NCBI GenBank assembly: GCA_951406725.2
Contig: OX597836.1
Location: 3,658,001-3,722,000, forward strand
Direction of reading: 5' to 3'
Source of the DNA: Octopus vulgaris
Lineage: Eukaryota
DNA length: 64,000 bases
Positions 46,032 through 63,934 of this stretch are shown here, one piece after another (positions within the stretch are counted from its first letter, which is position 1; each line of letters starts with the position of its first letter). The position numbers and the translations under genes are program-made. Under the pieces are notes generated by a model. That model ran no database searches, was not told the DNA's origin, and was given only the letters and a program-made list of their open reading frames with translations.

Positions 46032-46123
46032 ATGTTGTGTGCCTCCAAGGCTATAGTTATAGACGAAAACTTTGGCCCACAAGTAAAAGAAGAAGCAATG
46101 CCTTCCTTACAGCGTAGTGATAC
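46032..46123 (+). CDS. OAZ: Ornithine decarboxylase antizyme, probable coding exon 1 (ORF1 start: MLCASKAIVIDENFGPQVKEEAMPSLQRSD-T); second in-frame ATG at 46098
   Basis: The frame is open from ATG 46032 to a phase-2 donor AC|GTAGGT at 46124. AC plus the first G of the 56546 exon gives Thr and keeps frame into the frameshift site. The second Met context MPSLQ recalls MPLLS after the second AUG of mammalian OAZ1. Linkage across the 10.4-kb intron is inferred, not shown by transcript data. Confidence 0.75.
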
Positions 46124-47096
46124 GTAGGTATTTTTGGTATTTTATCTCCCTGCCACCCTTGTCTCTTCCTCTTTTAATATATATTTAATAATATTATACT
46201 CGCCAGTCTACTATGAATTATAATTATTATATACATAAAGAGTAAAAGAGAGTTATTATTTATATATATATATATATAGCAACGTATTTGTATATACACT
46301 CAATTTCTGTGGCTTATCTTTGGTTTAGAATCTGCATATATATATATATATATTTATTTAGTATATATAGAGATAGATTCTAAACCAAATACGAACTACA
46401 GAAAGTGGGTGTATATATGTATATGTATATATAATGTGATTTGTAATTAAAATTGCCCTTCTAATAATTTATAGTAGTAATTATATATTTTAATTTAAAG
46501 CTAATTTTACCGTTTGTCGTTACCAATTTTTGCGTTTCTGACGCGAAACTCCAGGTAACGACTAAAAAATAATATATATATATATATGGTCCTATATTTT
46601 TATTTTCGTTTGTAAATTCAAACGTATATATTTAATGTGGCTTTTAAGCCCCAGTTCATCTCTTGTCGAGTGTATACTTATCGAAAGCGTTCCAGCCATG
46701 ACCATTCCGTCTTTTATTTAGACATTACTTTAAACTCAAAACTTCATAATCCCAAATGTCCTTCCTTATTTTTTCTGCCTTTTTAAGATTCGCCTTCATA
46801 ATTTTGCGAGATACTTACCTGCTATTTCTAGCAAGAATAGCGTGCCCCCCAGGCTTTTTTCTTTTCCTATTAAAAGATCTGGTCAGGTCGTTCATTCTAT
46901 TATCTGCCTTTCTTTTATTTTTTTTCCTAATATTTTAATTACTAAACCATTCCTTTTTCGACTTAGCTATTCTCACCCCATATGACCTCCTTCGCAGCCA
47001 GCCATTCCATAACCAAACCCACACACAACTATATCTTGTGATATCTGTGCTGCTTGAGAGAGGCAGCCTTTTGCGCTCACTCCAAATGCACGTACA

Positions 47097-47132
<36 letters not shown>

Positions 47133-61828: not shown

Positions 61829-61994
61829 CCCTTTCGTTACTGTATTTATTTTGAGATGCTCTGTGTTTCTCCCAATTATTTTAGATATAACAAAGAATTT
61901 TGTAAAATAACTTAGTTTAGTTAAAAACTTATGAAAAGAAGACATTTGTCCTACAGAGCCAGAGCCGGTTTCAGCTGGGTTGGTAACGAAAGGG
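61829..61994. mobile_element. Internally deleted, inverted copy of the 3389-3625 piggyBac-type MITE
   Basis: Same CCCTTTCGTTAC terminal repeats and TTAA flanks. The internal sequence is the reverse complement of the first copy (AGAGCCAGAGCCGGTTTCAGC). Confidence 0.85.
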
Positions 61995-63848
61995 TTAAAA
62001 TATGAAAGCGTTCAGTGTTCTGGTGCAGAGGAAGGCATTAATCATGGAAGAAAAGAAACCTTTTGTCTTATTTCCGGCAAACTTAATCTGTCCTGTGAAA
62101 AGTCAACGGAAACTGTTTACAAATGCTGTGTAAAATGCCATTTAAGCTTTTTAAAATTCTTCTATCAATCACTCTTAACCTTCTTAGTGGTGGTCTTGGG
62201 CTGACTGTCGGGTGGTAGGATGGAGAGAGGATATGGTTAAGATAGGATTAGCTTTAAGATTATAATCCTGTTGCTTGAGGTTTGACGAACAGCTTTCAGC
62301 TGGTGTTGAACATGTTCTGGCTGTGTGGCTAAGAAACTCGCTTTGTAACCGCATGGTTCCAGGTTCAATCCTACTGCATGGCACCTTGAGCAAGTGTCTT
62401 CTATTATAGCCCTGGGTCAGCCAATACTTGCTGACTGAATTTGGTAGATGGAAACTGGAAGCTATGCAATAATCCCTCTTTTTTACGATAGGACAAAATT
62501 TATATTATTTGCTCTCAACTGAAGCAAGGCTCTATAACCTCACTACCTCCTCCTGGTCAAAAAAAGGAAAAAGTGTGCAGGGGGTCTCTAATAAAGCAGC
62601 CTCTCAGTCCCCCCCCCCCTGCGATAGGTGAAAATCCACAAAGCAGAAACAGTACTGTGTATATTTTATTATAAATGCAAAACAAGGCTACAGTGGAATC
62701 GGCGTAAGCTTAGATAACAAACCGCAATATGTCAAGGGATTACTGTATATGTATAGGGATATATATATAGCTATATATGTATAGATATATATTTGGCTAC
62801 ATATGTATATCTGCATGTATGTTTATCTCCTTGTGGACTTAGTGGTTCAGCAAAAGTTTGCAAGAATGAGTTCCTGACTTGGAAATAATTACTGGGTTTG
62901 ATTTGCTCAACTCACACCCTTCCAGCTGGTTTCTCTTCCGGTATGTTCCGAGGTGACTGGTGCGTTCACTGTGAAAAAAATTAGTGCTCAGAGCGAGCCC
63001 TGCCAGCTTGCATACGTAAAGCATGGAATGATTGATGTAAAATAACCAACATTAAAGAGAAATGGTTAGAACAGGGAATTGATAAAATACTGGGTGACTT
63101 TTACTTACGGTTTGTTAATGTCATTTTAGTTCTTGCCAAACGCTTGTTATAAAAGAAAAAATGAAAGTTTAGTCTTGGTGTCAAGATGTAACCCTTTTGA
63201 TATCAACCTGCTTCAAACTACCCCTTAGTTTTAATCGGGGCTGGCTGGAGTCAGAAACAAGGGGTGGCTGGAGTCAGTAAAGCTATAGTGACTCCAACTC
63301 CCAGTGTCTTTATTTTTTAATATAAACCAGTTTTAACAAATAGGCCTACTCAGAGTACAAGTGTATGCTTTGAGATATGTAGACCAGAATCACTTAATTA
63401 CATAAAGAGGAATTTGTATTGGGTTAGGGTTATTGTTCTGTCGTGTTGCCGTAATATTTTGATTGGTCTGTCAAAATATCTAATTCATCCAAAGACATTT
63501 CATTGTTTTTTTGTTTTTTTCTATGTTTTGTGTCTTCATATAAATCCTTCTCAAGTTGGAATTGCTCTGAAGCCATATCAGTTCTTACTCACCCCACCAA
63601 AAAACAGAAACAAATCCTTTCTTTATTTCAAACTGTACTGAAAATTTCCCAGCCTTTACAATAATATTTAGAAGGAAACGGCTTTCTTTTGAAGCTACGA
63701 GATCTGTGGTGATTTATTTTTAGAACGATATTGCAAGGTAGGTGTGATAGGTTAGATTTGACTAATTTGAACATAGAAACGCATAGAATATGTGCCAGAA
63801 ATGGTTTGATTAAATACTTAAAGTATTGTTTCTTCTTTTTCCTTTCAG

Positions 63849-63934
63849 CTTGGTTACTTTGCTGGAATTTGCCGAAGAGAGACTCCACTGCAAGAATGTC
63901 ATAATCTACTTCAAAAGGGATCGCAACAACAGAA
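63849..63934 (+). CDS. OAZ: Antizyme exon 3, (G)LVTLLEFAEERLHCKNVIIYFKRDRNNR; the final exon lies beyond the window
   Basis: Acceptor ttcctttcag| and donor A|GTAAGT bound an 86-nt exon. Its phase matches exon 2 (GG+C = Gly). It encodes the antizyme signature LLEFAEE. Confidence 0.96.

Follow-up and report, generated by a model that had tools for sequence, protein, structure and literature searches.

A single-copy antizyme gene of Octopus vulgaris with a UCC-UGA shift site, a predicted class IIa-type pseudoknot and a candidate alternative upstream exon

The window analysed here, a 64-kb stretch of Octopus vulgaris DNA (contig OX597836.1, + strand, within which all coordinates without a prefix are numbered), contains three of the four exons of what is, at a probability that we put at roughly 0.95, the single-copy ornithine decarboxylase (ODC) antizyme gene of the octopus, in which a UCC-UGA site and a predicted class IIa pseudoknot would support a +1 ribosomal frameshift, likely raised by polyamines, to yield a product that targets ODC. 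This is a textbook recoding gene whose protein is already present in RefSeq, and its main finding is already known; an earlier reading of the same DNA, made from the sequence alone (hereafter the sequence-only reading), was right in calling the mechanism known rather than new, and was mistaken in presenting the gene as “hidden”, an identical protein having been deposited. The analysis fixes the gene model, with four exons, predicted ribosomal slippage at 56601 and a start at 46032 rather than at 56620, and adds an octopus to the animals for which a class IIa pseudoknot is predicted; its only new detail, a minor one, is an alternative upstream exon.

Gene structure and identity of the product

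The coding part of exon 1 (46032–46123, +) opens with the ATG at 46032, contains in-frame AUGs at 46032 and 46098 and ends at the donor 46123|GT, a donor at 46128 having been rejected as it would place a stop within the first open reading frame (ORF1). Exon 2 (56546–56855, +; acceptor AG|56546, donor 56855|GT) carries the end of ORF1, the 5′ stimulator region, the shift site, the pseudoknot and the beginning of ORF2, the complete frameshift cassette being contained in this exon alone. Exon 3 (63849–63934, +; acceptor AG|63849, donor 63934|GT) continues ORF2 with the ODC_AZ domain and the motif LLEFAEE, and exon 4 lies past the window end, at L002:5336-5463 (the same as G000:C23:3726336-3726463, a single match), where ORF2 terminates at L002:5461-5463. 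The splice sites given for exons 1–3 are canonical and in phase as read from the sequence, and those on which the sequence-only reading had built its three exons proved real; of that exon model, the three exons stand, whereas ORF1 occupies exons 1 and 2 only and the gene is incomplete in the window, a fourth exon following beyond it. That reading had overlooked three things: the fourth exon, the pseudoknot of class IIa and the exon far upstream of the usual first one.

ORF1 comprises 49 codons and ends WCS-UGA; ORF2, in the +1 frame from 56602, begins with DAPHA and then contains LPEGSKE and LLEFAEE, all as the sequence-only reading had described. ORF2 comprises 155 codons, and the +1-joined product amounts to 49+155 = 204 amino acids. 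The ORF2 frame has no AUG upstream of the shift site, with either the usual or the alternative first exon; reading through the UGA in frame 0 would add 7 amino acids only, and the −1 frame is closed after 10 codons.

The 204-residue product is identical at 204/204 positions to the RefSeq Octopus sinensis antizyme XP_029649766.1, and at 201/204 positions, with three differences, to XP_014777834.1 of O. bimaculoides. Both records have the same start and the same trans-frame junction as the +1-joined product; both are entitled “LOW QUALITY PROTEIN ... antizyme 2-like”, in which “2-like” does not amount to a test of orthology. The Pfam family ODC_AZ (PF02100) matches the full protein at 1.4e-20, scoring 73.7 bits where the cut-off is 24.2 (the scan having been run on the identical XP_029649766.1); exon 3 alone gives a weak match (8.7e-6, 26.1 bits, same cut-off), exon 1 alone none, and exon 2 alone finds 0 families at E≤1. 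Four antizyme chains of the PDB (4zgz, 5bwa, 4zgy and 1zo0) match at 2e-29 to 2e-28 over residues ~100–198, and PF02100 is present in 20/20 homologues of the exon-2 piece of ORF2 (20 of the 99 candidates within E 0.001). The assignment to a cephalopod antizyme made in the sequence-only reading, and its expectation that the assembled protein would match the ODC_AZ model, thus hold. A chance likeness is excluded by the full identity to the RefSeq antizyme together with the in-frame UGA found in 69/69 homologous loci.

Only one copy of the gene exists, since searching the octopus's own genome with the protein returned only three ORF2 exons, all from the antizyme locus (a search of the same genome with PF02100 gave 0 matches and was uninformative, its control having matched nowhere as well). 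A gene of the ODC family is found on contig C8 as two exons (G000:C8:85186139-85188211; L087 and L088) whose best match is human ODC at 8e-15.

Both junctions are used in RNA. Four public runs (of 21 listed) were compared with positions 45700–64000, all of them as assembled contigs. Junction 46123/56546 (GT..AG) occurs in 3/4 runs and junction 56855/63849 (GT..AG) in 4/4, in agreement with the sequence-only reading; in all four a loose end at 63936 marks where the contigs proceed from exon 3 into exon 4. At the contig level, at which rare variants are invisible, exon 2 shows in 4/4 runs no gap, insertion or changed letter, and the shift site no variant, so that the UGA stop is kept in the mature mRNA, being neither an indel nor spliced out; a cDNA lacking one base at the site, which the sequence-only reading had named as evidence to the contrary, is found in none of the four. 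The usual 5′ untranslated region is at least 54 nt long, the RNA contigs extending upstream to 45978 (X10), and beginning at 45995 in X4 and at 46013 in X2. In run X4 the antizyme contig is split into two records that overlap at 56588–56617, over the shift site, with depths of 4623 and 5527 and no variant letter listed; a split next to the shift site suggests a branch, be it an allele, an error or another path.

Shift site and putative 5′ stimulator region

The shift site (56598–56604, +) consists of UCC (56598–56600), UGA (56601–56603) and a following C. A scan of metagenome contigs yielded 70 homologous loci, of which 69 were counted for the site, L043 being set aside since its match begins past it. 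UGA stands at the same place in 69/69, by which an assembly error is ruled out, the P-site codon is UCC in 67/69, and the next base is U in 69/69. The two remaining sites are GUU-UGA, within a mollusc-like ORF1 (L019:217-222), and GCC-UGA (L075:246-251), in which sequencing errors are possible. In the accessible part of a 2007 review (PMC1874602), to which all its citations here refer, UCC is the sole P-site codon listed for Mollusca, GCC is absent from the P-site codons of Table 1 and GUU is unlisted there for Mollusca. The same source reports that, of the termination contexts tested, UGA followed by C was the least efficient, so that the UGA-C of the octopus fits rather than harms a shift site.

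Upstream of this, a conserved region, the putative 5′ stimulator (56565–56597, +), occupies the position of modules A/B/D of the review (PMC1874602): the ~36 nt before the stop match the homologue consensus at the most conserved positions, and of the 33 positions from −36 to −4, 24 equal the consensus, many being 95–100% conserved among 62 unique homologue sites.

Predicted pseudoknot

Four bases after the stop begins a predicted class IIa-type pseudoknot of 67 nt (56608–56674, +), with a stem 1 of 10 bp (56608–56617 with 56643–56652, +), a stem 2 of 10 bp interrupted by an A-C mismatch at 56636/56668 (56630–56640 with 56664–56674, +), a hinge of 2 nt and a loop 1 of 12 nt. Stem 1 is found in the minimum-energy fold (z = −2.83). 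The alignment comprised the window and 38 homologues (39 sequences), the 38 having been picked by eye from the 69 loci in order to thin near-duplicates, and the octopus stems align base for base with these 38 metagenome-contig homologues. Paired cells make up 95.8% of 818, versus 42–54% when the partners are slid; two-sided changes occur at 4/21 pairs, a value reached by 0/500 shuffles. Furthermore, four-fold wobble positions in the stems are 93–100% fixed (63 unique sequences), whereas in PxGILPxGSK, a core conserved in the protein, the figure is 41% (18 rows), a contrast that points to selection on the RNA. A class IIa pseudoknot is accordingly predicted 3′ of the octopus shift site, the sequences indicating a conserved potential for RNA structure. 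Class II pseudoknots, of which the type example of IIa is that of Crassostrea gigas, have been reported from five phyla (PMC1874602, citing Ivanov et al. 2004), and the class IIa element has been reported to stimulate frameshifting, which stem mutants lower (PMC1874602); with the class IIa invertebrate antizymes the octopus gene shares UCC-UGA, two long stems a few nt past the stop and the conserved 5′ region.

Several points weigh against the reading of a polyamine-controlled antizyme gene with a class IIa element. Covariation is thin, 11/21 pairs being invariant and only 7 cells being changed on both sides; the percent-paired measure is a weak discriminator (47/500 shuffles as high), the measure of further pair types does no better than shuffling (429/500), which leaves two of the five shuffle measures without a clear margin over control. 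The peptide patterns by which the homologues were found overlap the stems and favour conservation there, a bias that acts on amino acids and not on wobble bases. The octopus hinge has 2 nt as against a single nucleotide in class IIa and 4–14 nt in class IIb (PMC1874602), the eleventh pair of stem 1 having been lost; loop 1 is short at 12 nt and the whole knot, with its 67 nt, is compact when compared with the “sometimes over 90 nt” of class IIa (PMC1874602). The four RNA runs, being contigs, lose rare variants, and one of the four is on record as RNA, the other three being guessed to be RNA and spliced nonetheless. The ODC assignment of the C8 gene is poorly separated from antizyme inhibitor (57 versus 51 bits over 59 aa). 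Finally, octopus frameshifting, the trans-frame peptide and the response to polyamines are known by inference from the family. Because covariation is thin, it is invariance and the published class that carry the argument for the structure. As to the hinge, it is 1 nt in the 31/38 homologue rows that form the pair between columns 29 and 65, a pair absent in the octopus, and the octopus hinge is closer to IIa than to IIb.

Loop 3 can in addition form 7 bp with the shift site (56597–56603 with 56654–56660), a pairing that lengthens stem 1 in the minimum-energy fold; the corresponding pairing amounts to 3–5 bp in 69/69 homologues, the octopus therefore differing from them both here (7 versus at most 5 bp) and in UGA-C versus UGA-U (69/69). 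This pairing would be unwound with the ribosome on the site.

The A of the stem-2 mismatch 56636/56668 is invariant in 39/39 aligned sequences. A-C mismatches are favoured ADAR sites and RNA editing is heavy in cephalopods; no A>G is seen in exon 2 across the 4 runs, either at the stop or at this mismatch, contigs hiding rare edits. A scan of the whole window with Rfam at gathering threshold gave no antizyme frameshift element, the sole match being a fragment of large-subunit (LSU) rRNA.

A probable alternative upstream exon

In run X6 the antizyme transcript is represented by one contig of 917 nt (depth 3531) that spans exons 4 to 2 and extends a further 347 nt upstream of 56544, exon 1 being uncovered. 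The 30 letters displayed from this upstream part equal window positions 16428–16457 exactly (0/100 shuffles), and the likeness continues to an AG|GT at 16459/16460. This defines the 3′ end of an alternative upstream exon (16428–16459, +; donor 16459|GT, in-frame AUG 16431), of which ~32 nt are verified and which possibly reaches back to ~16111, ~30 kb upstream of exon 1, in a region that is unique in the genome except for a CAT microsatellite. When joined to exon 2 it gives an ORF1 of 28 codons from AUG 16431, versus 27 codons from the usual second AUG; both usual AUGs are replaced by one and the frameshift cassette is kept, so that the isoform would stay under frameshift control, the cassette lying wholly within exon 2.

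That this isoform is real we regard as probable. The competing account, unlikely though far from negligible, is that 16428–16459 marks no promoter isoform of antizyme and stems instead from faulty contig assembly, from a chimera created by read-through of a transcript farther upstream, or from an internal exon joined on its 5′ side to a partner with other AUGs. The exon is known from one contig in one of the four runs, with 30 of 347 upstream letters displayed, and the alternative N-terminus is carried by none of the 8 octopod-cluster proteins; moreover, the region may be further spliced, since it holds AGs that resemble acceptors (16184, 16190, 16251 and 16427) and one site that resembles a donor (16211), and donor 16459 is weak at +4 to +6. 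On the other hand, the upstream letters of X6 match a single place in the genome without any difference, this place lies upstream on the strand of the gene, and the match stops right at an AG|GT with an in-frame AUG; the contig is unbranched through exons 2–4 at its full depth, with exon 1 uncovered; no recognisable gene was seen by eye among the 58 stop-to-stop ORFs of at least 120 aa in the window; and the contig, if contiguous, would end at 16111 within the CAT microsatellite, a kind of sequence in which contigs of this sort often break. Loose ends being only partly listed, a minor alternative form may also be present in the other runs.

A genuine X6 isoform is likely to be one of tissue- or stage-restricted promoter origin. 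The fuller proposition, namely that the single gene produces a tissue- or stage-specific antizyme from a promoter ~30 kb upstream, with a new AUG, an ORF1 whose 28 codons match the length that is conserved from AUG2, and loss of the conserved N-terminal 22 residues, is tentative, the odds being against it. If confirmed, the exon would offer a natural test of whether selection keeps the length of ORF1 rather than its N-terminal sequence, and of the way in which polyamine control is adjusted between tissues where there is a single antizyme gene.

Other 5′ forms were sought elsewhere. The alternative N-terminus occurs in 0 of 23 proteins of the two closest clusters (8/8 and 15/22 members examined), and searching for homologues of the first 70 aa of P0001 gave 3 matches and no new N-terminus; no description of such an antizyme isoform was found in a literature search that included the accessible part of PMC4528330, most subscription papers being outside its scope. 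Among the metagenome homologues 25 loci (from among L025-L058, and counting L073) have an ORF1 that starts at the second AUG (MPS/MPA), with an in-frame stop 4–22 codons upstream (mostly 6), an ORF1 of 26–33 codons and no N-terminal extension, by which short-ORF1 antizymes like the alternative octopus isoform are seen to occur naturally. Just upstream of the alternative AUG, 16393–16428 (+) holds an 11-codon ORF in the ORF2 frame whose TAG lies two bases before that AUG, the ORF2 frame being open thereafter to the end of the gene; this ORF matters only if the stretch is transcribed.

Initiation at the internal AUG and integrity of the frame

A second alternative concerns the route by which the domain is translated. 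ORF2 codon 7 is an AUG (Met56; 56620–56622, +), 16 nt past the stop and within loop 1, at which truncated annotations start. Here the sequence-only reading was correct on two counts, in that this Met opens a truncated piece, an exon-2-only ORF that ends at an intron stop, and in its warning that annotation is easily mis-started: among the 5 named records in the octopod cluster, 3 begin at Met56 (148–149 aa) and 2 are the RefSeq 204-aa models flagged LOW QUALITY. Part of the cephalopod antizyme might accordingly be made without frameshift, by re-initiation or leaky scanning at AUG 56620, as a form of 149 aa in which the ODC_AZ domain is complete, beside the shift route. Met56 is present in 8/8 octopod-cluster proteins and in all 15 that were read of a second, 85%-identical cluster, while a Met in ORF2 codons 1–15 is found in only 2/69 other homologues; the AUG is preceded at −3 by a purine, the full Pfam match is retained in the 149-aa form (6.9e-21), and ORF1 is short, 27–28 codons, from AUG2 or from the alternative AUG. 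Yet this AUG lies merely 16 nt past the stop, inside the predicted pseudoknot, and scanning to it must skip one or two AUGs on the way; conservation is still strong at the shift site, in the 5′ modules and in the pseudoknot, and a polyamine-blind source of antizyme would defeat the feedback. The Met56 pattern is explained by one inherited change of GUG to AUG in a loop free of constraint, and Met56 is more simply taken as a change tolerated there. Such a frameshift-free contribution is, on balance, quite improbable.

The weakest alternative, a broken frame due to an assembly indel, a pseudogene lesion or a spliced-out stop that would leave one continuous ORF, deserves next to no credence: a one-base shift of the exon-2 acceptor would indeed fuse the frames, and RefSeq labels its 204-aa models LOW QUALITY, but the shifted acceptor lacks an AG, junction 46123/56546 is used as given in 3/4 runs, the gene is single-copy, and assembly error and stop splice-out are both refuted by the intact RNA contigs and by the same stop in 69/69 homologues.

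Other features of the window

Intron 2 contains, at 57278–57539 (+), a piece of eukaryotic LSU rRNA that is degenerate and has large deletions (Rfam RF02543, 67.2 bits, model positions 1457–1888), probably an rDNA-derived pseudogene insertion; the bin 57309–57919 that spans it is almost devoid of RNA cover. Interspersed-repeat pieces, probably fragments of SINEs or transposons, lie in introns 1 and 2 (53032–55475 and 58531–62807), where thousands of short contigs with many cross-joints reach a summed depth of ~41,000.

Proposed mechanism and comparison with known antizymes

By analogy with the systems described in the accessible parts of PMC1874602, PMC5009743 and PMC4551804, ribosomes would start at AUG 46032 or 46098 and pause at UCC-UGA, where a +1 shift, aided by the 5′ modules and the pseudoknot, would become likelier with high polyamines; the resulting 204-aa product, as in the antizyme family at large, would bind ODC and promote its degradation. 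In the octopus the frameshift, its dependence on polyamines, its stimulation by pseudoknot and 5′ modules and the targeting of ODC are all inferred from the family. A literature search, made on titles in a limited library, found no paper on a cephalopod antizyme; cephalopod names were unmatched in the supplements of PMC1874602, as was the control word Crassostrea, and a cephalopod sequence may be listed there.

A mollusc comparison is offered by the abalone antizyme HdiODCAZ, as far as it is described in the accessible part of PMC4551804. Its ORF1 has 51 codons versus 49 in the octopus and both genes use UCC-UGA; the abalone has four ORF1 AUGs and UGA-U, the octopus two AUGs and UGA-C. The product of the abalone ORF2 has been reported to promote the degradation of ODC (PMC4551804).

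A second Met located 24–29 codons before the stop is found in 20/20 homologue ORF1s with the motif N[FY][GR], and the two-AUG layout of ORF1 is conserved in them. Vertebrate antizyme 1 likewise has two in-frame AUGs in ORF1, and its ODC-binding domain is homologous to that of the octopus (~2e-29). The 22 octopus residues that precede the second Met are acidic (4 D/E, 2 K/R), an acidic stretch being unlike a typical mitochondrial presequence; for this reason a mitochondrial role of AUG1 like that in AZ1 should not be assumed in the octopus. Vertebrates differ further in having an unrelated class I pseudoknot and several paralogues, including the male-germ-cell antizyme 3, whereas the octopus has one gene, in which the promoter switch, if true, would be the counterpart of that germ-cell paralogue.

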